Below are positions 1,434 through 40,450 of a DNA stretch of 50,883 nucleotides, one piece after another. The notes beneath the pieces are model-generated. The model was given only the letters and a program-made list of their open reading frames with translations, did not search any database and was not told where the DNA came from. The DNA lies in contig JBIOXB010000172.1 in assembly GCA_044869275.1 (NCBI GenBank), positions 1-50,883 of the forward strand. The letters are read 5' to 3'. This stretch comes from a bacterium (GTDB lineage: Bacteria; Zhuqueibacterota; Zhuqueibacteria; Zhuqueibacterales; Zhuqueibacteraceae). Each line of letters starts with the position of its first letter. Position 1 is the first letter of the stretch. A program made the position numbers and the translations under genes.

Positions 1434-2498
1434 GTGGTCCTGTCAAAAATAAAGAGGTCTCGTCTCAAAGTGGCATTCACAAAACTGATCAAAAAGATTC
1501 TGTTCTACTGCGGTTTTTATCACCTGCTGCGCCTTCTGTTTCCGCATCACAAAGTGGCGATATTGCGCTACCATGCCGTGGTCGATCCGCAAGACAATTT
1601 TTATACCACCCCGAGCATCAGCGTTTCGGTGCAGGATTTCGAGCGGCACGTGCGGTATTTTGCCAAACGCTATCGCATTCTGTCTTTGGATCAACTCCTC
1701 GAGGCCTTGCTGGCGAAAAGGCCTTTGCCCAGAAACGCCGTGGTGTTCACGTTCGACGACGGCTACGCCGACAATATGATCGCCGCACAAATTCTCAAAA
1801 AGTACGGCGGCTCGGGCGCGTTCTATCTCACGACGAATTGCATCGATCGCCAGGAGCCGCTGTGGCTTGCCGAGCTGCATTATTTGATTCGCGCCGCACG
1901 CGCGCCGAAATTTTCTTTGCGCTACAACGGCACGCTACTCGAGTTGCCCTTGACCGGCGAGGCAGCGCGGCAATCCGCGGCGCGCGAGATCACACGCATC
2001 ATCAAAAGCAATAACCGCACCGTGCGCGAACAGGTGCGGCAGCAATTGCGCGAGCAACTGGGCGGAGCCGAATCCCAAGAGGTATTGCATGGCATCATGC
2101 TGCGCTGGGACCAGGTCGAACAAATGCTGCACGACGGCATGGTCATCGGCGGCCACACGCTCAGCCATCTGAATTTGCCCAATGCCGAGCCGGCCGAGGC
2201 CTTGCTGGAAATTTCCCGCTGCCGCGAGGTGTTGGAACAAAGGGTGAAGAGGCCCATCCGCCATTTTTCCGTGCCCAATAGCGGTCCTTATGCCTACTAC
2301 AACGAGGCGGTCAAACAAATGGTGGGCGAGAGCGGGTTTGTGTCTGCGGTGGTGTCGGCGCATGGATTCGCCGATCACAACAGCGACCTGCTGGAGCTGC
2401 ACCGCATCCGTACGGTTCCGGAGCTTTATGAGGTCATCGCTACCATTGAATTGGGCAGGTGGGAGAGCACGAAGAGCAGCGGAGACAAGCCAAAATGA
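1434..2498 (+). CDS. Polysaccharide deacetylase (CE4/NodB family)
   Basis: ILRYH, TFDDGY and GGHTLSHLNL motifs. Confidence 0.9.
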   Translation: MVLSKIKRSRLKVAFTKLIKKILFYCGFYHLLRLLFPHHKVAILRYHAVVDPQDNFYTTPSISVSVQDFERHVRYFAKRYRILSLDQLLEALLAKRPLPRNAVVFTFDDGYADNMIAAQILKKYGGSGAFYLTTNCIDRQEPLWLAELHYLIRAARAPKFSLRYNGTLLELPLTGEAARQSAAREITRIIKSNNRTVREQVRQQLREQLGGAESQEVLHGIMLRWDQVEQMLHDGMVIGGHTLSHLNLPNAEPAEALLEISRCREVLEQRVKRPIRHFSVPNSGPYAYYNEAVKQMVGESGFVSAVVSAHGFADHNSDLLELHRIRTVPELYEVIATIELGRWESTKSSGDKPK

Positions 2499-15237: not shown

Positions 15238-16254
15238 ATGGCAGACATTCGCGCGCAGAACGGCGCTGCTGCACGCGCCGCCGAATTGTTGTTTGTCTCT
15301 TGGGCCGCCAATTGCAGCCGCAGCGATGCGCTGGCGAAACTGCTGGGCGGCGTTTCGAAAATGGTTTATGTCGAAAGCCTGGGCAGTCGCGCGGCCACGG
15401 TCTGGCTGAAATATCTCATTCAGATGTGGCGAACGTGGTGCCTGCTGTTGCGGGAAAAGCCCCGCGTGGTGATCGTGATGGTGCCCCCCGTTTTTATTTG
15501 CGCCCCGGTTTATCTCTACTGCCGTCTTTATCACGCCGGTTATATCACCGACACACATACGGCGGCTTTCACGATGTCGCGCTGGAAACCCTTGTTGTTT
15601 CTCAACGCCTGGTTCTATCGGCGCGCGCTCACGAATATTGTCACCAACACCCATCTTGCCGGGCAGGTGGCCGCTTGGCAGGCGCCGTACGTGGTCATTG
15701 GCGATTTGCCGGTGACCTTCGAAAAAATAACACCGTTCCCGGCGAATGGCCGTTTTATCATCACCGTGATTTGCAGCTTCAATGCTGACGAACCGCTGGA
15801 TGACATCTGGCAATCCGCGCTTCAACTTGGCGACGTCGATTTTTACGTTACCGGCAAGGTGAAAGACGCGCCCGCGCGTTTGCGGGAACGCAAGCCGGAC
15901 AACGTGAAGTTCACGGACTATCTCGCGCTCGATCTTTATGCCGGCTTGTTGCAGGCCAGCAATGCGGTCATGGTGTTGACCACGCGCGATCACACGATGC
16001 AGCGCGGTGCTTACGAGGCGATGGCACTTGGCACACCCATCATCACTTCGGACTGGCCGCTGCTGCGCGAGACGTTTCGCCAGGGCGCACTGTTCGTGAA
16101 TAATTCTCCTCAAGACATCGTGCGTGCCGTCCGTGCGCTGCAAAAGGAAGGCCCGGCTTACCGGACCGCCATTCAAGCGCATCGCCAGGAGCGGCTTGAG
16201 GTTTGGCGCACGAATGAACGGGCCTTGCGCACGGCCCTGTCCCGGAAAGATTGA
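15238..16254 (+). CDS. Glycosyltransferase family 4
   Basis: DTHT, SFNADEP, GAYEAMALGTPIITSD. Confidence 0.85.
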   Translation: MADIRAQNGAAARAAELLFVSWAANCSRSDALAKLLGGVSKMVYVESLGSRAATVWLKYLIQMWRTWCLLLREKPRVVIVMVPPVFICAPVYLYCRLYHAGYITDTHTAAFTMSRWKPLLFLNAWFYRRALTNIVTNTHLAGQVAAWQAPYVVIGDLPVTFEKITPFPANGRFIITVICSFNADEPLDDIWQSALQLGDVDFYVTGKVKDAPARLRERKPDNVKFTDYLALDLYAGLLQASNAVMVLTTRDHTMQRGAYEAMALGTPIITSDWPLLRETFRQGALFVNNSPQDIVRAVRALQKEGPAYRTAIQAHRQERLEVWRTNERALRTALSRKD

Positions 16255-16258
16255 AGGA

Positions 16259-18025
16259 ATGACCATCCGAGCAGACCTAAGCCGCACACCGCGCTTCGAT
16301 CGCATGCGCCAAGTTTTGCCCGAACCCTGGCGCACGCTGCTGCTCAAAGATACAATCTTCGAACTCACCGGCGCGTGGAAGTTTTTCACGCATCTGTCCG
16401 CAACGCAAGCCGTTCTTTTCTATCTGCCCGGTTTCAGCGCCATGCCGTTGGCGTTTGCACGGCATGTGGCGCGCGTCGATCTTTTCGGGCTGGCGCCGGA
16501 AGAACAAGAGTTGATCGCAGAAATGGCGGCCGCCAAGGCGCTGGCGAATTTGCGCTGCTTGCACTCGCTCGCCGACCTGCAACCGCCTTACGCCACGATC
16601 GTGTTGATGCCCGAACTGGAAAGCTGGCGTCAACCCGGCTGGCAGGAACTGCAGGAGCGTCTGCACGCCGGCGCCCACAGCGCGGAGGAGTATTGGTTGA
16701 TTTTGCGCCATTCCGGCCGGCGGAGATTGAGGCAGCATGGGGAAAAGTTTTTACGCACCATTCTGCGCCGGCCAAAATTGATGGGGGTGCAAAGATACTT
16801 GCGCCCGGGCTTTATGGCCGATGGTATTGCCGGAGCTTCGCAGGCGGCGAAATTTTTCCCGGTGTGCGCGCAAGCGGAGCGGCTCATGCTGACGTTAGCG
16901 CCTTGTTTCCCTGCTCCTCGACATATTTCGATTGCGCCGGAAAAGCCCAGCATGCTCTCTCACGTGCATGCGGAGAAACCGGCGCACGCAGAACATGTCA
17001 TTTGTGCACAGCGGCCTGCGGCGCAGGCGTTCTCTTACCTGGAAAGATTGTTGCGCCATCTCACTCTGGTGTCCAAGCAAAGCTGGCGGCCGGCCGGAGC
17101 GATGCGAGTGCTGCCCGGCGGAAAAGTGCAAGTCGTTTTGCATCAGGAAGGCACGCCACGCCCGGCCGCCTTGCTCAAGCTACCGTTGATTCCTTATGCC
17201 GCGGCGCGCATGCGTGAGAATGCCGGCCATCTGCTGCGCTTGTCGCAGGCGCTGGAACTGCTGCCGGAGCAGCGCGAGTGCTTTCCGCATCATCTCGCGG
17301 CCGGACAATTTGAAGCGCAGGCCTATTATCTTGAGACCTTTTTACCGGGCTGCTCTCTCGACCAATTGCCCGCGACGGCGCACACCGCCCGGCAATGGCA
17401 TAATATTTTCCGGCTGTGGTTTGAGATTCAACAACGCCTGGCGCGGCGCGTTCAGATGGATGACCGCGTGCTCGCCGGTTTGATCGGTGAGCATGCGCGC
17501 GATCTGCAGGCATGGTTGTCGCCCGGGCCGGTCGAGAGTGTGCGCCTGCAACGCGTTGTAGCGTATTGCTACGAGGTGTTCGCTGGCCGGGAACTGGCGC
17601 TGAGTCTGGTGCACGGTGATTTTTCGATCAAAAACATTTTGATTGATCCTTCGACCCAAGAAGTGAGGGGCGTGATCGATTGGGATTTGGCGGATTTTCT
17701 CTCCGCGCCGCCTTTGGATGTGCTGCATTTTTTTGTGCGCACGGACGAACGCTCGTTCCACGAACCCGCGCCCGCCATCGCTTTGCGTTTGATCAAAGAC
17801 CGCACCGGCCGGCACACCAGTTATTTTGACGAGGCCTGCGAACGATACGGTTATCGCCGCGCGGATTGGCCAGCGCTCGTCTTGATGTATTGGCTTTTGC
17901 GACTGCGCGCCTACCTCGGATCGGACAAAAACATGGATGCAAAATTTGTGCGGCGGCAATTCTCGGACATGCTCGAGCTGTTCGAACGTGAGCCGCTAGC
18001 GCCGCGCATCGGAGTCGCCGTTTGA
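16259..18025 (+). CDS. Degenerate methyltransferase-like N-domain fused to an APH-like phosphotransferase
   Basis: C-terminal LLK, HGDFSIKNIL and GVIDWD kinase motifs. N-terminus resembles a class I SAM-MTase without the glycine-rich loop. GAAGGA RBS precedes ATG 16259. Confidence 0.7.
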   Translation: MTIRADLSRTPRFDRMRQVLPEPWRTLLLKDTIFELTGAWKFFTHLSATQAVLFYLPGFSAMPLAFARHVARVDLFGLAPEEQELIAEMAAAKALANLRCLHSLADLQPPYATIVLMPELESWRQPGWQELQERLHAGAHSAEEYWLILRHSGRRRLRQHGEKFLRTILRRPKLMGVQRYLRPGFMADGIAGASQAAKFFPVCAQAERLMLTLAPCFPAPRHISIAPEKPSMLSHVHAEKPAHAEHVICAQRPAAQAFSYLERLLRHLTLVSKQSWRPAGAMRVLPGGKVQVVLHQEGTPRPAALLKLPLIPYAAARMRENAGHLLRLSQALELLPEQRECFPHHLAAGQFEAQAYYLETFLPGCSLDQLPATAHTARQWHNIFRLWFEIQQRLARRVQMDDRVLAGLIGEHARDLQAWLSPGPVESVRLQRVVAYCYEVFAGRELALSLVHGDFSIKNILIDPSTQEVRGVIDWDLADFLSAPPLDVLHFFVRTDERSFHEPAPAIALRLIKDRTGRHTSYFDEACERYGYRRADWPALVLMYWLLRLRAYLGSDKNMDAKFVRRQFSDMLELFEREPLAPRIGVAV

Positions 18026-19368
18026 ACGCCACTTGTTTTGCCAGCCTGCTGCACTTGCTGCACACGCAAAATATTCCCTATCTCGTTTTGCGCGACCATC
18101 CCGAGTCCCCGGCGATGCGGGATTTTGACCTGTTGATCGACCGCCGGCGCTCTGGCGATTTCATGCAATGCGCGCGGCAGCAGGGTTTTCATTTATTGAA
18201 ATCCGGCCGGCTCAACCCCGGCAAAAAAGTGCTGCTGCGCTGGGAGAAAAACGGTTCGCACGTCATCGACCTGCACGAGCGCCTGATTTATCGCGGCTAT
18301 GAGTTTCTGGACGCCGGGCGCGTGCTTGCCCGCCGGCGAAGAATCGGGGCATTCGATTTTCCCAGCCCGGAGGATGAGCTGTTGACCCTGCTCTGGCATA
18401 ATGTCCTGAGCAAGGAAGAGATTCAAGCCAAACACCGCGCTCGGCTGCTCGCGTTGCTAGCGATGCCGTTGGAGGAGGAATATCTCCGCGAGCATTTGCA
18501 GGCATTCGGATTGGACCGGCTTTTTCAGGAAATCCGGGAAAATTTTCAAGCACTGCTGCAGGAGCCGAAACTCGTACAACGGGCCAGACGGCGTGCGCTG
18601 CAGCGGCTGCGCTTCAAGCCGTTCGCCAATGCGGTGCGGCGCGCGCGCCTCGGCTTGCTCGGAACACTCGACGGCCGTATGGGCGCACGGCGCGGTGCAT
18701 TGATCGCGTTCATCGGCCCGGATGGCTGTGGCAAAAGCTCCCTCACCAATGCCGTGCGGGAAGAATTTCGCCGCGCCACCATCGCCACGGACATCGTTTA
18801 TCTCGGCCCGTGGGGGCAAAACCAATTGCCGTTGTTTGATCTGGTGCGCGTGTTACACCTCAAGCCTTTTCATCAAGAGGAAAAAAACAAGCGGGACTTC
18901 AACCGCAAGCTCGAAGTACAGCCCGGCTTGGTGTCGCGCATAAAACTGTTCCTGCGTGGCACTCTGTTCTATGCCTTTCTGGCGCTGGAATTGTGGTTTC
19001 GTTATTGGACCGTGGTCTTGCCGCGTTTGCGTCGCGGCCGCATCGTTCTGGCCGATCGTTATATCTACGATTTATTGGTCGGTTACAAGAATCGGCCGTT
19101 GCGGCATTTCCGCCGCTTGCGGGAGTGGTTGTGCCGCCGTTACCCCCAGCCCGATTTTACCGTGTTATTGGATGCCACGCCGGAAGTCATTTTCGCGCGC
19201 AAGCCGCAGTTCAAAGTGGAGCAGCTCGAATACATTCGCGGCGCCTATCAGGAGCTGGGCAAAAGTTTTGCGCTGCACAAGCTGGACACGAGTGTGAGCG
19301 TCGAAAAAACGCTCACGGATTTCCGGCAAGAAATTCCGCCCGTGCTTTGGCAGCGGTGGAAGGCATGA
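18022..19368 (+). CDS. Nucleotidyltransferase-like domain fused to thymidylate-kinase-like P-loop domain
   Basis: YLVLR...RDFDLLI...IDLH (Pol-beta-like DxD plus third Asp); GPDGCGKS P-loop, LADRY and PQPD (TMK-like). Confidence 0.72.
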   Translation: MNATCFASLLHLLHTQNIPYLVLRDHPESPAMRDFDLLIDRRRSGDFMQCARQQGFHLLKSGRLNPGKKVLLRWEKNGSHVIDLHERLIYRGYEFLDAGRVLARRRRIGAFDFPSPEDELLTLLWHNVLSKEEIQAKHRARLLALLAMPLEEEYLREHLQAFGLDRLFQEIRENFQALLQEPKLVQRARRRALQRLRFKPFANAVRRARLGLLGTLDGRMGARRGALIAFIGPDGCGKSSLTNAVREEFRRATIATDIVYLGPWGQNQLPLFDLVRVLHLKPFHQEEKNKRDFNRKLEVQPGLVSRIKLFLRGTLFYAFLALELWFRYWTVVLPRLRRGRIVLADRYIYDLLVGYKNRPLRHFRRLREWLCRRYPQPDFTVLLDATPEVIFARKPQFKVEQLEYIRGAYQELGKSFALHKLDTSVSVEKTLTDFRQEIPPVLWQRWKA

Positions 19369-19463: not shown

Positions 19464-21005
19464 ATGTCGCAAAAGCCCAAAAGTATCGGCGAACAAGCCA
19501 AACTCGGAATTGTTTACAATTCCATGTCGCGCCTGAGCGGCACCTTCATGCAGTTTTTCGGCAGCATTGCGCTGGCGCGCATGCTGGACGTGAAAGACTT
19601 CGGCCTGGTGCAAATGTCCATGATGATCGTGGAGTTCGCTACTAAAATGGGGGAGTTCGGTTTCAGCATGGGACTGGTGCAGCGCCGCGAAGAAGTGACG
19701 GAAGAGCATATCAATACGCTGTTCTTGATGGATTTTATTTTCAAGATCACGCTCTTCGGTGTGATCATGGCATTCCTGCCTTTTTTGGCGGAGTATTTTC
19801 GCGAGCCCAGATTGTCCACGGTATTGCCCGGCGTGGCGTTGTATATGGTGCTCGATTGTTTTGAAGCTGCCGGCACCACCATGCTCGATCGCCAGATGAA
19901 CTTTCAAAAATCGGCGCAAATCGAGATCATCGGACGGTTCACGGAGATCTTTTCTTCCGTCGCGCTGGCCTTCATGGGTTTCGGCGTGTGGAGCCTGATT
20001 CTCAGCAAGATCTTGGGCATCTCTATCGTGGGTTTTCTCGCGGCGCGCGCCATTCATTGGTGGCCCTCGCTGAAATTCGACATGCCAGCCGCGAAAGAGC
20101 TGTTTCGTTTCGGCGGCTGGGTATTTTTGCGCAATTTTTTTCGCTACCTGGCCGACAACGCCGATCGTTTCGTCATCAGCCGTTTTCTGGGCGCACAACA
20201 ATTGGGATACTACTCCAAGGCCTTTGATTTGATGCGGCTGCCGCAACGCCGCATCACGCGCGCCCTGAATTCCGTCATGTTCGCGGCTTTTTCCCGCGTG
20301 CAAGATCAACCGGAAAAAGTCAAAGCCGGTTTTCAAAAAGCCGTGCTCGCGGTTTCGCTGGCCAGCTATCCGTTGTTGATCGGGGTGATGATCATCGCCC
20401 CGGAATTCGTGGATTTCTTATTCGGTGAAAAATGGCGGCCGATGACTTTGCCTCTGCAAATCATGTGCGTCGCCGGGGTGTTGCGTTCCATCGATCCCTT
20501 TTTGAACTCGGTGGTGACCGCCACGGGTTTTGTGCGCAATTCCACTTTCCGCCGGCTCATCGAATTCATTTTGCTGGCTTTTGCCGTTTACCTTGGCGTG
20601 AATTACGGCATCGTCGGCGTTTCCGTGGCCGTGGTGATCGTATCCGTCATCGTGATGTTTTTGATGGTGAACCTGCTCAAACGCATGGGGGTGGTGGGCT
20701 GGCGCGAATATCTCGGCCCGCAAATGCCCGCGTTTTGGGGGAGCCTGGCGATGGCAGCGGTGATGCTGGCGAGCCGCTATGTCCTGGCGCACAAGCTTGG
20801 GGTGCGGCCGGTATTCACCATGTTCGGCATGATGTTCGCCGGCGCCGTAACCTATCTCGGCGGTTTATGGCTGACCAAGCCCAAGCGCGTCGTGGCGCTT
20901 TGGCAAGAATCCGCCGGTGATGTACGGAAAGCCACGGGCACCCTGCGCAAAAAAATGGGCGGCATACTCAACAAATGGGGCTGGGCCGCCAGCACCTTCA
21001 AATGA
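19464..21005 (+). CDS. Wzx-type polysaccharide flippase (PST family)
   Basis: Multi-TM protein with LARML..DFG, GFGVWSL, NADRFVI..LG...LGYY and LFGEKW. Confidence 0.92.
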   Translation: MSQKPKSIGEQAKLGIVYNSMSRLSGTFMQFFGSIALARMLDVKDFGLVQMSMMIVEFATKMGEFGFSMGLVQRREEVTEEHINTLFLMDFIFKITLFGVIMAFLPFLAEYFREPRLSTVLPGVALYMVLDCFEAAGTTMLDRQMNFQKSAQIEIIGRFTEIFSSVALAFMGFGVWSLILSKILGISIVGFLAARAIHWWPSLKFDMPAAKELFRFGGWVFLRNFFRYLADNADRFVISRFLGAQQLGYYSKAFDLMRLPQRRITRALNSVMFAAFSRVQDQPEKVKAGFQKAVLAVSLASYPLLIGVMIIAPEFVDFLFGEKWRPMTLPLQIMCVAGVLRSIDPFLNSVVTATGFVRNSTFRRLIEFILLAFAVYLGVNYGIVGVSVAVVIVSVIVMFLMVNLLKRMGVVGWREYLGPQMPAFWGSLAMAAVMLASRYVLAHKLGVRPVFTMFGMMFAGAVTYLGGLWLTKPKRVVALWQESAGDVRKATGTLRKKMGGILNKWGWAASTFK

Positions 21006-21100: not shown

Positions 21101-22447
21101 GTGTCTCTCCGCGCCACATTAGCGATCTTAGTGTTGGTGGTCGGCTGCTTCTGGACGCTGCGGCGGCCGATTGTGGGCGTCTGTATGGCCGTTTTGTTCT
21201 TTCATCTCAATCTGCGCACCCTCGGCGCCGGTTTGGAAGAAATCCGTTTTCAGTTTGTGATTACGCTCGTGTTGATGATTTCCTACATCCTCAACCGTGA
21301 AGAACTTCTCCGGGACGTACAGCCGCTGCGCACACCGATGAAATGGATGTTTGCCTTTACCGGCATGACGTTTTTGACCAGTATATGGGCGGTGGCTTCT
21401 CCTGAGATTGCTTTCGATAGCGCGGTGGATTTTGCCAAAATCATTTTGTTCACCTGGTTGATGATGCGCATTGTCCGCACTGAGCTCGAATTGCGCATTC
21501 TGATGTACGTCACCTTTGCGGGGATGTGGTACACCTCGTTTATGGCGGCGTGGGGAGTGGAATGGGGTTGGATCAATGAATTGGAGGTGGGCGTGGCTAC
21601 CGGCGGCGCAGGTGCGCATCTGATGATGTTCATGCCGTTGTTGGTTTTGCTCACGCTTTACGGCAATTGGAAGGAAAAGCTGTATTGCGCCTTCGTGATT
21701 CCTTTCGTGCTAAATTTCCTGCCCAATACCCCCGACGGCAGCCGCTCGACCTTGGTTATTCTCGTCACCTCCATGGCGCTCATGCTGATGCTCGCGCCCG
21801 GTTCCATGCGTTTCCGCATTGCCGTGCCGATTCTGACCGGCGGATTATTGTTCGTCTTCTTTCTGACGCCGCCTGAATACTGGGCCGATATGGCGACGAT
21901 TCTCGATCCGCACAGCGAGAGTTCTTCCGCCTCACGCTTCGCCATCAACGACGCCACCTATGAGATCATCGGCGAGTATCCGGAAGGCATCGGCTACAAC
22001 AATTACTCGCTGATCTCGATGAAGTATCTGCCCGAAGAGATGCTCACCGAACTCGGCACGCGCGACGCGCACAACAGCTATCTCAAAGTGATGGCGGAGT
22101 TCGGCATTGTCGGTTTTTGCATTTGGATCTTGATGTTCTTTCTTACCTGGCGGAGTTTTCGCATGGTGCGCAAGACCATGCAAAACGGCGTGCCGCCGAC
22201 GCGCTTGCAGTTGCATGCCCTGGCTTTTGAGCTGGGCTTGATCGGCATCTCGCTGGGCATTTGGACGCACGCCTATAACGATCTCGACACGTTATATTGG
22301 TTTGTCGCCTTCAGCAGCATCGTGATGAATTTGCACGAACAGCAACAGACGGCTCAGCCCGACGCGCCCGCGGCAGCTCTCCCCGACTCCAGAGTGCAGC
22401 AACCCAACGACCTCACCAGGAAAAAAACAGAGCCGGTAGCGGCTTGA
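21101..22447 (+). CDS. O-antigen ligase / Wzy polymerase family protein
   Basis: Multi-TM protein with GSR, periplasmic R..., P.GIG and DAHNSYL...AEFG (Wzy_C pattern). Confidence 0.85.
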   Translation: MSLRATLAILVLVVGCFWTLRRPIVGVCMAVLFFHLNLRTLGAGLEEIRFQFVITLVLMISYILNREELLRDVQPLRTPMKWMFAFTGMTFLTSIWAVASPEIAFDSAVDFAKIILFTWLMMRIVRTELELRILMYVTFAGMWYTSFMAAWGVEWGWINELEVGVATGGAGAHLMMFMPLLVLLTLYGNWKEKLYCAFVIPFVLNFLPNTPDGSRSTLVILVTSMALMLMLAPGSMRFRIAVPILTGGLLFVFFLTPPEYWADMATILDPHSESSSASRFAINDATYEIIGEYPEGIGYNNYSLISMKYLPEEMLTELGTRDAHNSYLKVMAEFGIVGFCIWILMFFLTWRSFRMVRKTMQNGVPPTRLQLHALAFELGLIGISLGIWTHAYNDLDTLYWFVAFSSIVMNLHEQQQTAQPDAPAAALPDSRVQQPNDLTRKKTEPVAA

Positions 22448-22676: not shown

Positions 22677-23360
22677 ATGAAAAAGCTGGTGACGTTTTGC
22701 GGCATGGTGGGGAGCGGGAAAACCACCAATTCGAAAAAAACGCTGCGTTGGCTGTGCCAGGCCGGTTACGAGCCTTACTATCTCCGTTTTCGCTCCGTGG
22801 GGTGGCGTAGTTTGCTGCGCCCGCCGGCCCTCAGCCCTTGGCAGGACCGTGAATCGCACGGATCGCGTCCGGATCGCCGGTCGGCCTCGCGCAAAGCGCC
22901 GCGCCATTTGCAGGCCACGAAAAGCCTGAGCTTGCTTTTGACGTTAGGCTATTTGGTGCGGGCGATGCGCTTTCGCCTGTTCTGTTTTTTGTACCATCGC
23001 CATCACCTGGTCGTGGTGAATCGCTATTTCTATGACAGCTTCGCGCATTACCACCTCGCCACGGCGAGCGAACGCAGATACCTGCGCTGGCTGATGGCGG
23101 CGATTCCACGGCCGGAGCTCGCGGTTTTGCTCGTCTTGCGTCCGGAGACCGCCCACCGCCGCAAGCCTTTTTACAACGTGGAGGAATTGCGCCAATGCGC
23201 CGAGAACGTGGCGGCGTTCCAGCGTCTGGTGCCGAACTTGAAAATCGTCGCGACGGATAACATCGCGACCATCGATCGACAGGTGGAAAAACACTTGCGG
23301 GAGATTTTTCCGCAACAGCGGAAACGCGAACATGTTCAAGAAGGTTATCCGCAAAATTAA
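22677..23360 (+). CDS. Thymidylate-kinase-like P-loop protein
   Basis: GMVGSGKT P-loop, VVNRYFYD, PRPE and AHRRK lid. Confidence 0.7.
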   Translation: MKKLVTFCGMVGSGKTTNSKKTLRWLCQAGYEPYYLRFRSVGWRSLLRPPALSPWQDRESHGSRPDRRSASRKAPRHLQATKSLSLLLTLGYLVRAMRFRLFCFLYHRHHLVVVNRYFYDSFAHYHLATASERRYLRWLMAAIPRPELAVLLVLRPETAHRRKPFYNVEELRQCAENVAAFQRLVPNLKIVATDNIATIDRQVEKHLREIFPQQRKREHVQEGYPQN

Positions 23361-24567
23361 AATTGCCCATCTCGCCAACGAAATGAATGTCGGCGGCAAA
23401 GAACGCGGGATTCTGAATCTCGTCAACGCCATGCCTGAGGAGATCTTCGAGAATCATGTGTACGTGTTCAAGGCCGGCGGCCTCATGCTGCAGGCGCTCG
23501 ACCGCCAGAAATGCCGCGTGGTGGAATTGGGCGCGCGCGCGGGCGGGGATTATCGCTATGCTTTCAAGCTTTTCAAACTTTTCCGGCAGCATGGCATCGA
23601 TCTCGTGCACACGCGCTCGTGGGGCACTTTGCTGGAGGGCATGCTCGCTGCCATGGCGGCGCGCGTGCCGGCCCTGGTGCACAGCGAGCACGGCTTCATG
23701 CGCGTCGATACTCAGTTGCATGTGCTGATTCAAAATCTGTTTTGGCGTCTGGCCGATCGTGTGATCAGTGTTTCCGAAAACCTGGGCGATACGCTGCACG
23801 CGAAAATCGGTTTTCCGCGGCAACGCATACATGTCATTCGCAATGGCGTGGATGTGCGCAAACTCGATGCCATTGCGGAGCGCACCAATATTCGTGCGGA
23901 GCTGGGCCTGCCCCAGGAGACCTTGCTTTTTGGCAGTGTCGGGCGATTGGTGCCGGTGAAAAACTATGCCTGCTTGATTCGCGCGGCCCAGCTGGTGTTC
24001 GAAAAAGGGCCTGAGGCCGCCTTGCTTTTCGTCGGTGACGGACCGCTGCAAGCCGAGCTCGCCACGCTCGCGCAACAACTGGGGATTGGCGGCAAAGTTC
24101 ATTTTCTGAATTGGCGCAAAGACGTGCCACAGATCCTGCGCGAATTGGATGTCTTCGTGCTCTCCTCCTTCAGCGAGGGGATGTCCAATTCGATTTTAGA
24201 AGCAATGACGGCCCGCAAACCGGTGGTGGCCACGGGCGTGGGGGGCAACACTGAGCTGGTGGTGGAAGGTGAAACCGGCTTGCTCGTACCCTCAGATGAT
24301 CCCTTCCAGATGGCGGAAGCGCTGTTGCATTTGTTGCGCGAGGGGCCACGGCGCGTGGCCATGGGCCAAGCCGGCCGGCGGCGCATTGAAACGTTTTTTA
24401 CGCTGCCGCAAATGCTGCGGAATTACCAGCGGATTTACCTCGAAGTCGCGGCGCGGCATTTTACTTTTCATCCGGAATTGCGCGAACGCATCCATCAACA
24501 TTTTGCCGGCGAACCGGTGATGCTTCGTTCGAGTGCGAAACGAAGGGATTATCAAAAGGTGGTATGA
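23332..24567 (+). CDS. Glycosyltransferase family 4
   Basis: GGKER, HSEHG, IRNGVD, VGRLVPVK, SFSEGMSNSILEAM. Confidence 0.92.
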   Translation: MFKKVIRKIKIAHLANEMNVGGKERGILNLVNAMPEEIFENHVYVFKAGGLMLQALDRQKCRVVELGARAGGDYRYAFKLFKLFRQHGIDLVHTRSWGTLLEGMLAAMAARVPALVHSEHGFMRVDTQLHVLIQNLFWRLADRVISVSENLGDTLHAKIGFPRQRIHVIRNGVDVRKLDAIAERTNIRAELGLPQETLLFGSVGRLVPVKNYACLIRAAQLVFEKGPEAALLFVGDGPLQAELATLAQQLGIGGKVHFLNWRKDVPQILRELDVFVLSSFSEGMSNSILEAMTARKPVVATGVGGNTELVVEGETGLLVPSDDPFQMAEALLHLLREGPRRVAMGQAGRRRIETFFTLPQMLRNYQRIYLEVAARHFTFHPELRERIHQHFAGEPVMLRSSAKRRDYQKVV

Positions 24568-24814: not shown

Positions 24815-25876
24815 ATGCCAATTGTGATTCGTGAAGCCGATCCCCAAGCGGACCGGCAAGTGATGAGGGATTGCCTGCTGCGCAATCGCACGCGCTATGA
24901 AGAAAACGAAATATTCGAAGCGCGCTTCGATTGGGCCTATCGCGATAACCCGCACGGGCCAGGCCGGGCTTGGCTCGCCCTTGATCAAAGCAAAAATCAA
25001 GTGGTGGGATTCACTTCGGCATTTCCACGCCGGGTGTGGGTGGCGGGCAAACTCCTCACCGGGTGGAACTGTGCGGATTTTTCCATCGACCAAGAGTATC
25101 GCACGCTGGGGGTGGCCATGAAATTGCGCCGCGCCGCCAAGGATTGCGTCGATCGCGGCGAGTTCGATTTTTTGTTTGCGCACCCCAATGATCGTATGCG
25201 TGCCGTGCACGAGAAAGTCGGGCATCAAGCCATCGGCAAAATGGTGCGCTACGCCGCGGTGTTGCGCCTGGATGACAAACTTGAAGGCATGGTGGGCAAC
25301 AAGCTCGCGGCCCATGCGCTGGCCACGCTCGGCAATCCCTTTCTGCATTTCATCACGCCCGGCCGCGCGGTGGCAGGCCAGTATGATTTTTCTTTGGTGG
25401 AGGAAAAAGAGTTCGGGCCGGAATATGATCAATTGTTCGAAAGAGTGATCGGGCAGCATCGTGTGATCGTGCAGCGGGACTCGGCTTATCTTACCTGGCG
25501 CTTTTTGCACAACCCGCTGTATCGCGTGCGCAGCTTGCGTATGCAGCGCGGGGAGAAATTGCACGGCTACGTGTTGTTCTATGAAGCCCAGGGTGCGGCG
25601 CGCGCCATGGAATGGCTGGTCGAGGGGCAAGAATCTGAAATGCGGCTGCTTTTGCGCGCTTTGATTTATCATTTGCGCAAGGCTCGCATCAATAGCATTT
25701 CGTTGCGGATGCATGATATGAACCCTTGGCTTGGGGTCGCGCAGCAACTCGGCTTCCGCTATCGCGACGACGCCACTTCCACGGTCATCGCTTATGCCAA
25801 GGACTCGCAGCCTTATGCTGCAACGATCCTCGACGGCAAGAACTGGTTTATGACAGTGGGCGATCGGGACATTTGA
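24815..25876 (+). CDS. GNAT-family acyltransferase (tandem-GNAT size)
   Basis: FDWAYRDNP, DFSIDQEYRTLGVA (motif A), PN, RDSAYLTWRF..NP and C-terminal GDRD. Confidence 0.8.
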   Translation: MPIVIREADPQADRQVMRDCLLRNRTRYEENEIFEARFDWAYRDNPHGPGRAWLALDQSKNQVVGFTSAFPRRVWVAGKLLTGWNCADFSIDQEYRTLGVAMKLRRAAKDCVDRGEFDFLFAHPNDRMRAVHEKVGHQAIGKMVRYAAVLRLDDKLEGMVGNKLAAHALATLGNPFLHFITPGRAVAGQYDFSLVEEKEFGPEYDQLFERVIGQHRVIVQRDSAYLTWRFLHNPLYRVRSLRMQRGEKLHGYVLFYEAQGAARAMEWLVEGQESEMRLLLRALIYHLRKARINSISLRMHDMNPWLGVAQQLGFRYRDDATSTVIAYAKDSQPYAATILDGKNWFMTVGDRDI

Positions 25877-25882
25877 CGAATA

Positions 25883-25960
25883 CCAGTAGTCAGTGGTCAG
25901 TGGCCAGTAAACTGATTGCTGATAACCGACAACCGACTACCGACAACTGACAACTGACAA
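25883..25960. repeat. Heptamer tandem/inverted repeats
   Basis: CAGTRGY x3-4, then ACCGACA/ACTGACA x5. Confidence 0.8.
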
Positions 25961-25973
25961 CTTTGGAGTTCTC

Positions 25974-26222
25974 ATGGACGTCCGCTCTGATATTAAAGCT
26001 TTTCTCACGAAACAAGCGCCAAAAGGCGCCAGCTTTTCGGAGCAAGACAATCTGCTCATGAAAGGCGTGATCGATTCTTTGAAAATGCTCGACCTCATCA
26101 GTTACATCGAGAAGCAATTCGGCATTGCCATCGACGAAGACGAAATGATGCCCGATAATTTCGAGTCGGTTGACGCCATCGTCAATTTCGTGAACGAAAA
26201 GCGCCGTGCTGTCGATGCGTGA
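25974..26222 (+). CDS. Acyl carrier protein (DltC-like)
   Basis: 82 aa, acidic; GVIDSL phosphopantetheine site, IEKQFGI and PDNFESV. GGAG RBS. Confidence 0.92.
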   Translation: MDVRSDIKAFLTKQAPKGASFSEQDNLLMKGVIDSLKMLDLISYIEKQFGIAIDEDEMMPDNFESVDAIVNFVNEKRRAVDA

Positions 26223-27438
26223 AGTAAGCATTCCCTGGGCGGCCTGGTGCGGCGATTATCCTCAGCCCCTGGCTTTTCCCGAGCTGTGGGAGGTACAAGT
26301 CTGCGCCATGCGCGATGCCCCTGCGCTTTCCGTCGAACAAATGCGCGCCGCATTGCGGCAGACGATTGCCGCGCCACCGCTGCGCGAAATGCTGCAGGGT
26401 TGTGGAACCGTTGCCATTGCCGTCGATGATTTGAGCCGGCCCACGCCCACGCACGTGCTCCTGCCTTTTTTGTTAGAAGAATTGTTCGCGGTTGGCATGC
26501 AAAGAGAAAATATTACCTTCGTCATCAGCCTCGGCTCGCATACGGCTTTGACCCCGGCCGATCTTGCAAAGAAACTCGGCAAAAGCATTGTAACGCAATA
26601 TCGCGTGTTGAATCATGATTGTCATGGCGCTCTCACCGATCTCGGCGTGAGCGTGGGCAAAGTACCGGTGCGCCTGAATGCCGCCTTCATGGCGGCTGAT
26701 TTCAAGATTCTGCTGGGCAGCGTGGTGCCGCACGCTTTTGCCGGCTTCAGCGGCGGCGCGAAAATGGTCTTGCCCGGACTCTCGAATATCGAGAGCATCG
26801 AATGGACGCACAAAGCCGTGATGATGGGTCTGCGCGGCAAGGCCGGCACGCTCGAAGGCAATCGTTTCCGCGCGGAATTTGAGCGCGTCGCGCGGCATGC
26901 GGGCGTTCAGCTCAGTATCAACGTCGTCGTCAACGGCAACCGCGAGATTGCCGGAGTGTTCGCGGGTGATCTCGAAGCCGCGCATCGCGCCGGCGCCAGC
27001 TTCGCACGCGAGGTTTATGCCACGCCGTTGCCGGAAGAGCCTTTCGATATTGTCCTGCTCAACGCCTATCCCAAGGATGACGAATTGCTGCAAGCCGAAA
27101 ATGCCTTCATGTTCCATCACACCGCGCCGCCGGGTTATTTGAAAGAGGATGGCGTGATCGTGATGTCGAGCGCCTGCTCGTTGGGCATGGGACATCACGG
27201 CCTATTCGGCGTGAATCAAAGACTCTATCGCCAGCCGGCGCCCAAAGGCTTTTTGGGCAGCCGCCAGCTTGTTGCTTTCATGCCGGGTGTGACGGAGGAA
27301 GAGTTTCATCAGGTCTATTGGGAAGGGTATCCGCACTTTATCACATGGGAAGCGACTATTGATTTCCTGATGGAAAAATATTCGGAACGCACGCGTGTGG
27401 GGGTTTTACCTTGTGGCAGTATTCAAGTTGCAGTTTGA
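26215..27438 (+). CDS. LarA-superfamily nickel-pincer-dependent racemase/epimerase (lactate racemase domain)
   Basis: DDLSRPTP, LGSH, NHD, PHAFAGFSGGAKMVLPG with His 16 residues after the Lys, and AYPKD. Overlaps the ACP stop. Confidence 0.88.
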   Translation: MREVSIPWAAWCGDYPQPLAFPELWEVQVCAMRDAPALSVEQMRAALRQTIAAPPLREMLQGCGTVAIAVDDLSRPTPTHVLLPFLLEELFAVGMQRENITFVISLGSHTALTPADLAKKLGKSIVTQYRVLNHDCHGALTDLGVSVGKVPVRLNAAFMAADFKILLGSVVPHAFAGFSGGAKMVLPGLSNIESIEWTHKAVMMGLRGKAGTLEGNRFRAEFERVARHAGVQLSINVVVNGNREIAGVFAGDLEAAHRAGASFAREVYATPLPEEPFDIVLLNAYPKDDELLQAENAFMFHHTAPPGYLKEDGVIVMSSACSLGMGHHGLFGVNQRLYRQPAPKGFLGSRQLVAFMPGVTEEEFHQVYWEGYPHFITWEATIDFLMEKYSERTRVGVLPCGSIQVAV

Positions 27439-27468
27439 TCAAAAGACTACTCATCATCCTGGCCCGCT

Positions 27469-29067
27469 ATGATTTCCTATCTCATTCACCACTTCCTCGA
27501 ACATCACGCCCAAACCACGCCCGAGCAAATGGCTTGTATCCACGCCGGCGAAGCGGTAAGTTACGGCGAAATGGATCTTGCCGCAAATCGCGTGGCGCAT
27601 ATGCTGCGCGATTTGGGCGTGCAGCGCGGCGACCGTGTGGCGTTGCTGATTGACAACTCCAGCGCCTACCTCGCCGCCTATTACGGCATTCTCAAAGCCG
27701 GCGGCGTTACCGTGGCCATGTATGCGACCACAACGGCAAAAGCTTTGTCGTACATCGTCAACGATTGTGAAGTCAGTGTGCTCATCACGCAAACCCGGCA
27801 ACTGCCGCTGCTGCAAGAAGTGCACGACAAATTGCCCAAACTGCGCGCCGTGGTGTTGTTGGATGCCATTCGCCCCGCAGAAAATTCTGTGCCGGAGGAG
27901 ACACAAAAGAGCGAAATAACGTCGTGGCCCATGATCACGACGCAAGCCCTCGCGCAACAACCGGAAACGCCGCTGCCTTTGCACTTGATCGATCAAAACC
28001 TGGCCTCGATCATTTACACCTCGGGCAGTACCGGCGACCCGCGCGGGGCGATGCTGACGCATCTCAATATCGTTACCAATACGCGCAGCATCGTGAGTTA
28101 TCTCAGCCTTACGCCGCAAGACCGCATCATGGTGGTTTTGCCGTTCGCCTATGTTTATGGTAAATCGCTGCTGAACACACACTTCGCGGCCGGCGGCACG
28201 GTGATAATCGACAATCGCTTTGTGTTTCCGAATCTCGTGCTCAAAACCATGCAGGACAAGGAGGCGACCGGATTCTCGGGCGTGCCTTCAACCTACGCGA
28301 TTTTGCTGGGCAAGTCCGCCGTGCGCAAAATGGAATTTCCAGCGTTGCGCTATATCACCCAAGCCGGTGGTGCGATGGCGCCGGCACTCATTCGCGAGGT
28401 CATGGAAGTTTTTCGAGGCAAGAAAGTTTTTATCATGTATGGCGCGACCGAAGCTTCGGCGCGGCTCAGCTATCTGCCGCCGGAAGAGTTGCCTCGCAAA
28501 ATCGGGAGCATCGGCATTCCCATTCCCAATGTCGTATTGCGCCTGATTAAAGAAAACGGCGAGGAAGCTGCGCTCGGAGAACCCGGCGAAATTGTCGCGA
28601 GCGGGGCGAATCTCATGCAGGGCTACTGGAATCAACCCGAAGAAACCAAAGCGGCACTGACGCGGCACGGCTTTCACACCGGCGACCTTGGCCGCATGGA
28701 CGACGAGGGTTTTTTTTACGTCGTGGGCCGCAAGCGCGACATGATCAAATCCGGCGCCAATCGCGTGAGTGCGAAAGAAGTCGAAGAAACCATTCTCGAA
28801 CATCCGTACATTTTGGAAGCGGCGGTGATTGGCGTGCCGGATCAATATCTCGGTGAGGCGATCTGCGCATATCTTACGCTCAAGCCGGAACATGGCAACG
28901 GGCATGAAGAAAGTTTGGCGGAGAAGATTGTCGCTTTTTGCCGGGAAAGATTGCCTGAATTCAAAGTGCCGCGTACGGTGATCGTGCAAGAGAAGCTGCC
29001 CAAGAATGCTTCGGGGAAGATCATGAAGGAAGTCTTGCGCAGTTTGCATCAGAATGTGGCCCTGTAG
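27469..29067 (+). CDS. Acyl-AMP/acyl-CoA ligase (ANL superfamily)
   Basis: YTSGSTGDPRG, YGATEA, TGDLG, GRKRDMIK and PKNASGK all intact. Confidence 0.93.
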   Translation: MISYLIHHFLEHHAQTTPEQMACIHAGEAVSYGEMDLAANRVAHMLRDLGVQRGDRVALLIDNSSAYLAAYYGILKAGGVTVAMYATTTAKALSYIVNDCEVSVLITQTRQLPLLQEVHDKLPKLRAVVLLDAIRPAENSVPEETQKSEITSWPMITTQALAQQPETPLPLHLIDQNLASIIYTSGSTGDPRGAMLTHLNIVTNTRSIVSYLSLTPQDRIMVVLPFAYVYGKSLLNTHFAAGGTVIIDNRFVFPNLVLKTMQDKEATGFSGVPSTYAILLGKSAVRKMEFPALRYITQAGGAMAPALIREVMEVFRGKKVFIMYGATEASARLSYLPPEELPRKIGSIGIPIPNVVLRLIKENGEEAALGEPGEIVASGANLMQGYWNQPEETKAALTRHGFHTGDLGRMDDEGFFYVVGRKRDMIKSGANRVSAKEVEETILEHPYILEAAVIGVPDQYLGEAICAYLTLKPEHGNGHEESLAEKIVAFCRERLPEFKVPRTVIVQEKLPKNASGKIMKEVLRSLHQNVAL

Positions 29068-29254
29068 ATAGCTTTTGAACTGAATGAGCAACCGGATTAT
29101 TCTGAATCCGTTGGCGAAGAAATTTTCAGAATTTTGTTCTGACTTTGAGTGCCTTATGGCTTGAACTTGACATTGTCGTACTACGCTGACAAGGTCAAGT
29201 TGCGTTCCCAAGAAAGAGCAACCAGTATCGAGTATCCAGCATCCAGGAGCTTTC

Positions 29255-30370
29255 ATGCCTTTAAGAATTTGCAACATTGTCGGCGCGCGGCCGAATTTTA
29301 TGAAGATTGCGCCGCTCATTGATGAAATGAGAAAACATCCGGAAATCGAGGCCAAGCTGGTGCACACCGGCCAGCATTACGATGAGAAGATGTCCAAGCT
29401 CTTCTTTCATGATCTGGGATTGCCGGTGCCCGAGGTTTATTTGGGCGTGGGCTCCGGCGGGCATGGTGAGCAAACCGGCAAAGTCATGATCGAGTTTGAA
29501 AAGATCCTCATGGCGGATCGCCCGGACGTGGTGCTCGTGGTCGGCGACGTCAACTCCACCATTGCCTGTGGCTTGGTGGCGGTGAAGCTGGGCATCAAGC
29601 TTGCGCACGTCGAGGCCGGCTTGCGTTCGTATGATCGCGCCATGCCGGAGGAAATCAACCGCGTGCTCACCGATCAAATCTCGGACTATTTGTTCTTGAC
29701 GGAGCGCAGCGCCTTCGCCAATCTCGAGCGCGAAAGCGTCGCGCGTGAAAGATGCTTTTTCGTCGGCAATGTGATGATTGATTCGCTCATGAAGCATCGC
29801 GACCGCGCCGAAAAGTCCTCCATTCTTCATGAGCTGAAAGTGGACAGCAAAAAATTCGGCTTGATCACGCTGCACCGGCCGAGCAATGTCGATGTCCAAG
29901 AAAATCTCGAAAACATTTTCGGCGCGCTGCTGCACATTCAGCGCGATCTGCCGCTGGTCTTTCCCGTGCATCCGCGCACGCGCAAGCAAATGCAGCTTTT
30001 CGGCTTGGGTGAAAAAATCGCGCAGGCCCCCAATTTGGTTTTAACCGACCCGCTCGGCTATCTCGATTTTCTCAAGCTCACCGCGCATGCACGGCTGGTA
30101 ATCACGGACAGCGGCGGCATTCAAGAGGAAACCACGGTGCTCGGCGTGCCGTGCATCACCGTGCGCGAGAATACCGAACGCCCGGTGACCGCGACCGAGG
30201 GCACGAACGTCGTGATCGGCATGTCCCCGCAGCGCATCTTGGAAGAGAGCTATCTGATATTGGAAGGGAAAGGCAAAAAGGGCGGCGTACCGGAGCTTTG
30301 GGACGGCAAGGCGGCGGAGCGAATCGTCAAGATTCTTCTTGAAAAAGAAGGTCCCGCTGCGATTCATTGA
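29255..30370 (+). CDS. wecB: UDP-N-acetylglucosamine 2-epimerase (non-hydrolysing)
   Basis: GARPNFMK, HTGQHY, HVEAGLRS, MPEEINR, TDSGGIQEE, RENTERP. Confidence 0.96.
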   Translation: MPLRICNIVGARPNFMKIAPLIDEMRKHPEIEAKLVHTGQHYDEKMSKLFFHDLGLPVPEVYLGVGSGGHGEQTGKVMIEFEKILMADRPDVVLVVGDVNSTIACGLVAVKLGIKLAHVEAGLRSYDRAMPEEINRVLTDQISDYLFLTERSAFANLERESVARERCFFVGNVMIDSLMKHRDRAEKSSILHELKVDSKKFGLITLHRPSNVDVQENLENIFGALLHIQRDLPLVFPVHPRTRKQMQLFGLGEKIAQAPNLVLTDPLGYLDFLKLTAHARLVITDSGGIQEETTVLGVPCITVRENTERPVTATEGTNVVIGMSPQRILEESYLILEGKGKKGGVPELWDGKAAERIVKILLEKEGPAAIH

Positions 30371-35626: not shown

Positions 35627-35640
35627 GGCTGAAGGGAGAT

Positions 35641-35785
35641 GATCGAGGATCGAAGATAGAAGATAGAAGATCGAAGATAGAAGGTCGAAGATAGAAGATA
35701 GAAGATGGAAGTTAGAGGTCGCATCAATCCTCGATCTTTTATCTTCTAACCTCGACCTTCGATTCTCGATCTTCGACCCTCGATC
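35641..35785. repeat. Heptamer tandem array with inverted array (hairpin)
   Basis: 11 x GATMGAR-like units (35641-35717), then 8 reverse-complement units (35730-35785). Confidence 0.9.
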
Positions 35786-35830
35786 TGAAACCCGCTCGCT
35801 TCAGAACCAACGACAAAGAGGAGACCAAAT

Positions 35831-36496
35831 ATGATCCAGCTCGAAAGTATTGACAAGGTTTACCGCACGGACAAAATCGAAACCATGGCTTTAAACAACA
35901 TCAATCTGCAGGTGCGGGAAGGGGAGTTCATTTCAGTGATGGGACCCTCGGGCTGCGGCAAAAGCACTTTGCTCAATATCATTGGTTTGTTGGATGTGCC
36001 GACGAAAGGCAAAATCGCGTTGCACGGCGACAAGATTACGGCCTATCGCGACAAGCAGCTCGCGCGGCTGCGCAACGAAAAGATCGGCTTCATTTTTCAA
36101 AGCTTTCATCTCATTCCGGATCTCAACGTGGCCGACAACGTCGAGATTCCGCTGCTCTACCGCCGCCTGTCGAACGCCGAGCGCCGGCGTTTGGCGCTGC
36201 TGGCGTTGGATCGCGTTGGCTTGACCGCGCGTGTGCAGCATTTTCCCTCCCAGCTTTCCGGCGGCCAACAGCAGCGTGTGGCCATCGCGCGCGCGATTGT
36301 TGGCAGGCCCAGAATTTTGCTGGCGGACGAGCCCACGGGGAATCTCGACAGCCACATGGGCGACGAAATCATGGCGATCCTGCAGGAGTTGAATCAGAAA
36401 GAAAAAACCACCGTCATTATGGTCACGCATGACCCGCGCCTTTCGGAGAGAACCGAACGGATTGTGCGGTTGTTTGACGGCAGGCAGGTGAATTAG
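35831..36496 (+). CDS. ABC transporter ATP-binding protein (MacB/LolD-like)
   Basis: [30 protein letters not shown]. Confidence 0.96.
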
Positions 36497-36498
36497 AT

Positions 36499-36600
36499 GA
36501 TCGAGGATAGAAGATGGAAGATAGAAGATGGAAGCTCGCGCCTCTTCGATCCTCTATCCTCGATCATCAATCTTCGATTCTTGATCATCGATCCTCGATC
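36499..36600. repeat. Heptamer tandem array with inverted array (hairpin)
   Basis: GATCGAG/GATAGAA/GATGGAA units followed by TTCGATC/CTCGATC-like units. Confidence 0.88.
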
Positions 36601-36615
36601 CACAAGGGAGAACGC

Positions 36616-40207: not shown

Positions 40208-40340
40208 GATTCCGGCTCCTTGCATGATTCTGCGATTTAATGCGTATACAAAATCTTGCTCAAACCAGCAACAGAATTTTTGAATTGCCATGATAAACTT
40301 CTGAGCTGAATCATGCAAGCAATACTGTTCAAGAAGGCAA

Positions 40341-40450
40341 AGCGCAGAGGGCAGAGGGCAGAGGGCATAGAGCATAGCGCATGGAGCGTGGCGTATAGCG
40401 CCGAGCAGGGCTCTTCTCGTTATTCTGCCCTCTGCGCTCTGCCCTCTGCA
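40341..40450. repeat. Heptamer tandem/inverted repeats
   Basis: AGGGCAG/AGAGCAT-like units followed by TCTGCCC/TCTGCGC units. Confidence 0.8.

Follow-up and report, generated by a model that had tools for sequence, protein, structure and literature searches.

What does a protein of the LarA superfamily do between the genes for an acyl carrier protein (ACP) and an adenylating ligase, in the middle of a polysaccharide gene cluster? The question is raised by a stretch of 50,883 nucleotides (hereafter the window; contig JBIOXB010000172.1 of assembly GCA_044869275.1) from a bacterium of the Zhuqueibacteraceae, in which a glycosyltransferase gene and wecB flank four open reading frames (ORFs) in the same orientation:

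23332..24567, + strand: GT4 glycosyltransferase, upstream neighbour (best model TIGR03088, below cut-off)
24815..25876, + strand: candidate tandem (Eis-like) GNAT acyltransferase, 353 amino acids (aa), with an invariant C-terminal DRD motif (weak Pfam match, ESM Atlas and profile match)
25974..26222, + strand: stand-alone ACP, 82 aa, with an invariant Asp34-Ser35 pair (PF00550; alignment of 33) and the Ser codon at 26076
26215..27438, + strand: LarA-superfamily protein of the ACP-linked clade, 407 aa (Pfam Lar_N, fold match, residues)
27469..29067, + strand: ANL-family adenylating ligase, 532 aa, with V229 at the Asp235 position, R332 and the catalytic K517 (Pfam AMP-binding and AMP-binding_C)
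29255..30370, + strand: wecB, UDP-GlcNAc 2-epimerase, conserved downstream neighbour (TIGR00236 over cut-off)

The first-pass annotation, made from the sequence alone, had described this arrangement of four co-oriented genes between the GT4 gene and wecB, and the ORF coordinates agree with it. The overlap it reported between the ACP stop and the larA start is likewise confirmed (8 nt; larA ATG at 26215, ACP stop at 26220-26222), as is the 30-nt gap between the larA stop and the ligase start; spacers of 97 nt and 247 nt precede the ACP and GNAT genes, respectively. The explanation that accounts best for the whole, to which we assign a probability of roughly 45 %, is that these genes constitute a cassette for the carrier-protein-based acylation of a surface polysaccharide that depends on Wzx/Wzy, in which the LarA protein would carry out a pincer-dependent inversion at C2 of the acyl precursor. 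That the genes form a functional cassette for glycan tailoring is very likely.

Linkage of the genes holds across the order Zhuqueibacterales. Orthologs of larA were detected in 16 of the 19 genomes of the Zhuqueibacteraceae and in 5 of the 10 genomes of the sister family, and the close homologues carry the source label candidate division KSB1. These family tallies and the neighbourhood counts take in two unpublished genomes, G116 and G120, the former of which is also included in the alignments A3-A5, the trees and one of the pairs used to calculate the ratio of non-synonymous to synonymous substitution rates (dN/dS); when both are set aside, larA is found in 14 of 17 and larB and larE in 0 of 17 genomes of the family, and the conclusions are unaltered. 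The ACP gene lies directly upstream of larA in all 14 order genomes with upstream DNA (12/12 from a set of 14 ortholog-bearing stretches, plus a further 2/2) and at 10 of the 11 loci of a GTDB scan, the eleventh locus being cut; the genomes of the two sets overlap partly and the counts are not added. The ligase gene follows downstream of larA at 15 of 15 loci with downstream DNA, and wecB is a conserved downstream neighbour across the order genomes. The inclusion of the GNAT in the module, as originally proposed, holds for the 9 of 14 order genomes in which its gene is directly upstream of the ACP gene; it is absent from that position in the other five and is thus not obligate. A protein of 650-855 aa takes its place in five genomes, all from the same genus; a GNAT homolog (40-43 %) is encoded on another contig in the three of these that were checked, and a FemAB-like GNAT is encoded upstream in one cluster where the position is otherwise occupied. 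The ACP-larA pair is therefore the fixed core of the cassette, the ligase its steady partner and the transferase the variable component. Among the three family genomes without a larA match, G119 yields no match to larA, GNAT or ligase, the cassette genes being missing together, and in G107 and G115 contig breaks fall inside the cassette. Separately, we observed that the larA-ligase gap is a hot spot for large unrelated genes (G116, G108, G118, G123, G098, G114 and others), one of which encodes a secreted beta-propeller protein with a tail resembling those of the type IX secretion system.

The same gene order recurs widely, which makes the cassette more than a product of chance. A metagenome scan seeded with distant clade members confirmed at least 508 of 596 stretches; the best 80 were kept, and 70 of them entered the tree, nine partial sequences and one unparsed sequence being left out. 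Among these best 80, an ACP or ligase gene was found near larA at 19 of 26 loci in one clade versus 0 of 44 outside it, and, when both flanks had to span 2.5 kb or more, at 13 of 14 versus 0 of 15 loci, counts for which the node was picked after the labels had been seen, the hidden Markov models (HMMs) were built from cassette members and related loci are not independent. The recurrent neighbourhood expected for close LarA homologs in the first-pass annotation is thus present both within the order and in this clade. A quick tree of 77 rows, built after the exclusion of 15 near-duplicate or long rows, gives the clade branch an SH-aLRT support of 94; its FastTree support is 81. Two of its 26 loci are KSB1-like, and the others encode proteins 34-45 % identical to the window LarA. 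The neighbours in the clade are polysaccharide genes (wzx, wzy, glycosyltransferase), with MBOAT at one locus, the distant L117, where the order is GNAT-MBOAT-DUF1574-ACP-larA-ligase; L089 is the single clade locus with AsnB. A clade member is also carried by the cultured Caldithrix abyssi DSM 13497; a plasmid search returned no clade members, only canonical LarAs of at most 35 % identity. Loci outside the clade mostly have genes of catabolism or transport as neighbours, or else neuB accompanied by a cytidylyltransferase-LarA fusion. Such fusions, of about 655 aa, were seen at L099, L101, L102, L103, L105, L107 and L110, with neuB adjoining where the neighbour was checked. Another architecture is represented by two proteins of about 820 aa (L088:218-2689 and L097:5750-8215) in which LarA makes up the C-terminal half and the N-terminal 410 aa have no Pfam match; at L097, a DUF362 gene and an ACP gene are located upstream, and no DUF362 gene was found in the source genome of the window (G000).

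The LarA protein itself matches the Pfam Lar_N domain (PF09861, E 3e-47), with no match to the LarA_C model, and its predicted structure (pLDDT 94.8) aligns over the full length with the LarA structures (Foldseek TM 0.82-0.84), namely Lactiplantibacillus plantarum LarA (5HUQ), Isosphaera pallida LarAH2 (9EIA) and Mar2 (6D6Z), the equivalents of D72, R75, H108, H174, K184, H200 and Q295 being kept. The motifs and the codons listed in the first-pass annotation, His 26731, Lys 26761 and His 26809 (16 residues past the Lys), are correct, and to these can be added Asp 26428, Arg 26437 and His 26539. In an alignment of 33 ACP-linked members, D72, R75, H109, H173, K183, H199 and Q293 are all invariant (33/33), including the three residues anchoring nickel-pincer nucleotide (NPN) as cofactor (R75, K183 and H199), both catalytic His residues and D72. 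The invariant residues are those to which PMC7583248 and PMC11770544 assign catalysis and cofactor binding. In five pairs that lack larB/larE, larA has a dN/dS of 0.05-0.17, similar to the values of neighbour genes, and in two pairs with larBCE one of 0.06-0.10: larA is under purifying selection. None of the NCBIfam subfamily models (LarA, LarAH5, LarAH6, LarAH10, LarAH14-16) scores over its cut-off, and the best scores, also below cut-off, are those of the malate racemase models (255 of 500 bits). K287 is invariant, within a YPKD loop as in the malate racemases Mar1 and Mar2. Lactate and glycerate, the substrates first suggested, are not favoured, given that the marker residues of lactate racemases are not kept. 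Judging from sequence motifs, the nearest described group is probably LarAH group 23, a group of unknown function; Nitrospira NIDE0743 of that group (PMC7583248) shares the AWFGD start, the HPVAGFSGGAK and GxHELF motifs and the changed K298, a resemblance established by eye that makes the placement a lead.

A second LarA-fold gene occurs in the same genomes (G000:C34:30650-31933; L080, L164), with orthologs in 23 of the 29 order genomes. It has lost D72, R75, H108, K184 and H200 and is a probable pseudoenzyme or a protein with a new function. We considered and rejected it as a sign of cofactor loss in the Zhuqueibacteraceae: it is degenerate in larBCE genomes too.

The remaining proteins of the cassette are consistent with carrier-based chemistry. 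The ACP matches PP-binding (PF00550), and an AcpS-type phosphopantetheinyl transferase (PPTase) gene is present elsewhere in the source genome. The ligase has both the AMP-binding and the AMP-binding_C domains; its V229 aligns with an Asp of LgrA, and the module ligases have Val (19) or Ser (10) at this position, never Asp (29 sequences). An Asp at that position of adenylation domains binds the alpha-amino group. A ligase devoid of the amino-acid-binding Asp would fit a hydroxy acid, as the first-pass annotation had proposed. R332 is invariant in the module ligases, but AsnB-type ligases have it too; it could hold a second carboxylate. The GNAT gene has no family match at E 0.001, and its assignment is built on Acetyltransf_3 (E 0.002, over its cut-off), ESM Atlas neighbours (0.98) and a profile match to the tandem GNAT structure 3N7Z (E 0.002); this call is weaker than the other three, and the three methods agree.

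From the gene content, linkage, residues, selection and missing larB and larE genes, all of them observed, we infer every chemical step of the following scheme. The ACP, with its intact motif and a PPTase gene in the genome, would be phosphopantetheinylated on Ser35. The ligase would adenylate a small acid other than an alpha-amino acid, as suggested by its family and pocket, and load it onto the ACP, by analogy with a pair of proteins from Sinorhizobium meliloti discussed below. LarA would then invert C2 of a 2-hydroxy acid by the usual two-His hydride-transfer chemistry, with either the free acid or its ACP-bound acyl form as substrate, and finally the acyl group would be moved to an amino sugar by the GNAT or, in some lineages, by a different acyltransferase. 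The polysaccharide deacetylase encoded in the window is a possible source of the free amine. That a pincer-type cofactor is used appears probable, and stereo-inversion by LarA only slightly less so. As to the substrate, our best guess is a 2-hydroxy-dicarboxylate such as malate, tethered via its far carboxyl; 4-D-malyl and L-malyl N-acyl groups occur on bacterial polysaccharides (PMC3210612), so that malate is a guess with precedent, not a result, and we hold a malate-like substrate to be rather doubtful. The cofactor would be salvaged from other cells or made by a route other than LarB/LarE.

Several observations weigh against a pincer-dependent inversion within such a cassette. The equivalent of K298, which binds the substrate carboxylate (PMC11851776), is never Lys in the ACP-linked members (Asn 27, Gly 4, Thr 1 and Ser 1 of 33; N296 in the window protein, Asn codon 27100), and in PMC7583248 racemase activity is doubted for proteins without K298. 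K287, close by, might substitute for it. R339 (30/33) falls within the W358/T359 segment, in which malate racemases (LarAH4-6) have His or Gln followed by Lys, with a register that differs between MAFFT and hhalign. The one tested member of what is probably the nearest described group, group 23, was inactive on six substrates, in an impure preparation (PMC7583248). Unrelated genes sit between larA and the ligase gene at 9 of 15 loci, and to these points must be added the five genomes without a GNAT gene at the cassette position.

A further point concerns the cofactor genes. One of the three outcomes that the first-pass annotation named as refuting its proposal, a genome without larBCE, applies here to two of the three genes. 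The source genome (94 % complete) has larC (C89, 388 aa, full Ni_insertion domain); the other two, larB and larE, were not found by HMM search, by a PP-loop motif scan or by tblastn with relatives' proteins (two LarB and three LarE queries), nor in any of the 19 Zhuqueibacteraceae genomes, ten of which bear the cassette and are at least 93 % complete. Relaxed cut-offs in five genomes gave only weak PurE-size and long PP-loop matches. The larC gene is present in 12 of the 19 family genomes, absent from 7 and apparently truncated in G117, and G110, G114 and G101 (97-100 % complete) hold the cassette without larC as well; no cofactor salvage route or transporter was identified. This absence refutes in-house synthesis by the known route, not cofactor dependence, and because larB and larE are absent from the family an in-house canonical supply of the nickel pincer cannot be assumed. 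It does not single out the ACP-linked clade, because genomes from other parts of the class encode canonical LarAs and lack larBCE: across 125 genomes, a LarA-like match was found in 110 (active sites checked in few), larB in 28, larE in 30 and larC in 43, and of eight canonical LarAs aligned, one came from a larBCE genome and seven from genomes without these genes. The single-contig, closed, 100 % complete genome G044 encodes an intact canonical LarA and none of larB, larC and larE; the gene (G044:C1:2929822-2930688, L228) is of the LarAH2 type, with all catalytic and cofactor residues. At L228, L230 and L079, larA is flanked by DUF4254-type and rubrerythrin-like genes, after which comes a cysteine desulfurase gene (Pfam on L228 and L230). 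Two further ideas were rejected: replacement of LarE by the ligase and ACP, as canonical LarAs without ACP also lack larBCE and the sister-family genomes G098-G100 have both; and a link of larC to the cassette, as larC lies in unrelated housekeeping loci and is absent from 7 of the 19 family genomes. Tentatively, then, the clade may act on a carrier-tethered acyl group in cells unable to build the cofactor via LarB/LarE, the cofactor being traded, made by an undiscovered pathway or dispensed with in a cofactor-free inversion.

The last of these options is the competing explanation that survives best, and we regard it as unlikely. Thioester formation activates the C2 hydrogen as a matter of general enzymology; tethering to the ACP would acidify this hydrogen, and the two His residues could epimerise the acyl group without the nickel pincer, LarA being a cofactor-free isomerase or one with another cofactor. 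It would explain why larA is kept under selection without larB, larE and sometimes larC, and it suits the ACP-larA overlap, the loss of K298, a lid region shortened by about 20 residues and the replacement of the Arg following the first catalytic His in 32 of the 33 ACP-linked members. However, the short lid and the K298 loss are common to relatives without ACP and so are no proof of a tethered substrate. The cofactor-holding K183, H199 and R75 are invariant, whereas the second LarA-fold protein of the same genomes lost its anchors, which indicates that they can drift when unused, and the canonical LarAs without larBCE in the class make a general cofactor supply the simpler explanation. A predicted complex of LarA with the ACP (score 0.02, mark 0.32) gives no evidence either way.

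Less probable again is a pincer-dependent enzyme that is not a racemase but catalyses, on the acyl group carried by the ACP, a net oxidation (such as hydroxy to keto), a reduction or a hydride shuttle. The Y294 equivalent is changed in the ACP-linked members along with that of K298, other hydride reactions have been suggested for the groups without K298 (PMC7583248), and intermolecular hydride shuttling by a pincer enzyme has been described (PMC13524815). Against this, both catalytic His residues required for two-sided proton transfer are invariant, and no recurring redox partner is found beside the cassette. It is improbable, too, that the acyl group is destined for a lipid or a protein. Eis-type tandem GNATs, which the candidate transferase resembles, are amine or lysine acyltransferases, and the ACP scores best, far below cut-off, on the ornithine-lipid ACP model; yet the cassette stays amid wzx, wzy and glycosyltransferase genes even in lineages at 34-45 % identity, and GNAT homologues without LarA are also found within polysaccharide clusters.

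We give still less credence to LarA as an epimerase of a sugar acid of the polysaccharide pathway with a merely positional link to the ACP. The fusion of a related clade to cytidylyltransferase beside neuB would accord with it, as would two clade members, L095, where wzx and wzy flank larA and no ACP is visible, and L092, whose flanks of 7 kb each contain neither ACP nor ligase; but the adjacency to the ACP gene persists while all other neighbours change, and the known mechanism requires a free 2-hydroxyl. Finally, a canonical NPN racemase of lactate or glycerate fed by the cell's own LarB, LarE and LarC, to which the larC gene of a 94 % complete genome and the co-occurrence of cassette, larB, larC and larE in G098-G100 would point, is the least credible, given that none of the 19 family genomes yields larB or larE, that relaxed searches turn up only PurE and long PP-loop enzymes, and that the signature residues of lactate racemases are not kept.

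The setting of the cassette bears out the polysaccharide cluster recognised at first: the window encodes a Wzx/Wzy system together with GT2 and GT4 glycosyltransferases, a deacetylase, a nucleotide-sugar dehydrogenase, a heparinase-like lyase, kinase-like genes, wecB and murJ. The other features delineated are as follows:

1434..2498, + strand: polysaccharide deacetylase (PF01522)
19464..21005, + strand: Wzx-type flippase (profile matches)
21101..22447, + strand: Wzy/O-antigen-ligase-type membrane protein (profile matches)
25884..25962, no strand: short tandem arrays of 7-mers in the spacer between the GNAT and ACP genes; other window spacers hold similar arrays, which are not cassette-specific

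Arrays of 7-nt units are numerous and mostly intergenic (25884-25962, 29217-29246, 35637-35793, 36494-36601 and 40332-40449), and promoter and terminator scans returned chance-level matches only. The cluster also contains a short AMP-binding protein of 331 aa without the C-terminal subdomain (11249-12244), which is not a broken gene because it has the same length in relatives' clusters, and a conserved 957-aa protein with multiheme-cytochrome and tetratricopeptide repeat matches (12337-15210). Other conserved genes of the cluster are two of the APH-like and two of the thymidylate-kinase-like kind (5394-6584, 16124-18025, 18022-19368 and 22677-23360), with a possible role in glycan phosphorylation. 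In G124, the polysaccharide cluster encodes a 782-aa FtsZ-like protein (L220:12431-14776), and an unannotated 724-aa ORF occupies the equal position in G117.

How does the cassette compare with known systems? DltA and DltC use ligase-plus-carrier logic for the D-alanylation of teichoic acid, and the cassette resembles them in its ligase and stand-alone carrier, and at L117 also in the MBOAT protein; unlike them, its ligase has no amino-binding Asp, its ACP scores far below the DltC cut-off and the window is without MBOAT. With the loci for PEP-CTERM/XrtA exopolysaccharides it shares a ligase scoring 414 of 592 bits on the XrtA-associated TIGR03098 and GT4 and Wzy proteins that score best on XrtA-associated models, all below cut-off, and the cluster of a relative has wza, wzz, a DUF3473 deacetylase and a FemAB-like GNAT, as in XrtA loci. 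As in cassettes of ACP-loading ANL enzymes generally, the ligase is linked across genomes to a stand-alone ACP with an intact Ser.

The closest parallel is provided by the asnB-ACP-ligase cassettes on Sinorhizobium and Azospirillum replicons, of the S. meliloti SMb20650/SMb20651 type, whose proteins are 37-38 % (ligase), 29 % (ACP) and 24 % (GNAT) identical to ours and which in Azospirillum have the order GT4-deacetylase-ACP-ligase-asnB-nadE-GNAT. Acylation of SMb20651 by SMb20650 takes place in vivo, and the latter does not function as a long-chain acyl-CoA ligase (PMC7232532); from gene order, the pSymB locus compared here would be the SMb20650 ortholog. There, AsnB/NadE-like amidotransferases serve as tailoring enzymes, of which Pfam finds none in the window, whereas LarA is present here, and the AsnB-linked ligase of S. 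meliloti has the Asp that is Val in the window ligase. As AsnB homologs modify ACP-bound acids (bioRxiv 10.64898/2026.04.24.720606), a tailoring role for LarA in the same slot is reasonable by analogy.

Within the LarA superfamily, the ACP-linked members differ from characterised racemases in the changed K298 and Y294, the shorter lid and the tie to an ACP and a ligase, and the Zhuqueibacteraceae hosts differ from those of the canonical lar system in having neither larB nor larE. In the passages of PMC7583248 examined, Table S1 names no gene family that neighbours group 23, and no ACP COG appears in the genomic-context tables and supplements; group 15 does have an acyl-CoA synthetase nearby, but represents another subfamily. 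A literature search covering titles and abstract openings, with subscription journals thinly represented, returned no glycan cluster that pairs LarA with an ACP and no cofactor salvage; in the first-pass annotation, too, no NPN enzyme of carrier-protein glycan tailoring was known to have been described. The earlier interpretation is, overall, partly supported. The class-wide occurrence of larA without larB and larE would imply a shared cofactor, a second synthesis route or LarAs that work without the cofactor, and through the cassette bacterial glycans with D-configured hydroxyacyl groups, 4-D-malyl for instance, would become accessible genetically. The cassette is a real, old and undescribed variant of the ACP/ligase cassettes for glycan tailoring: the LarAs described in the literature examined take free 2-hydroxy acids as substrates and require LarB, LarE and LarC, and the ACP-linked clade would extend this family to the biosynthesis of the cell surface.

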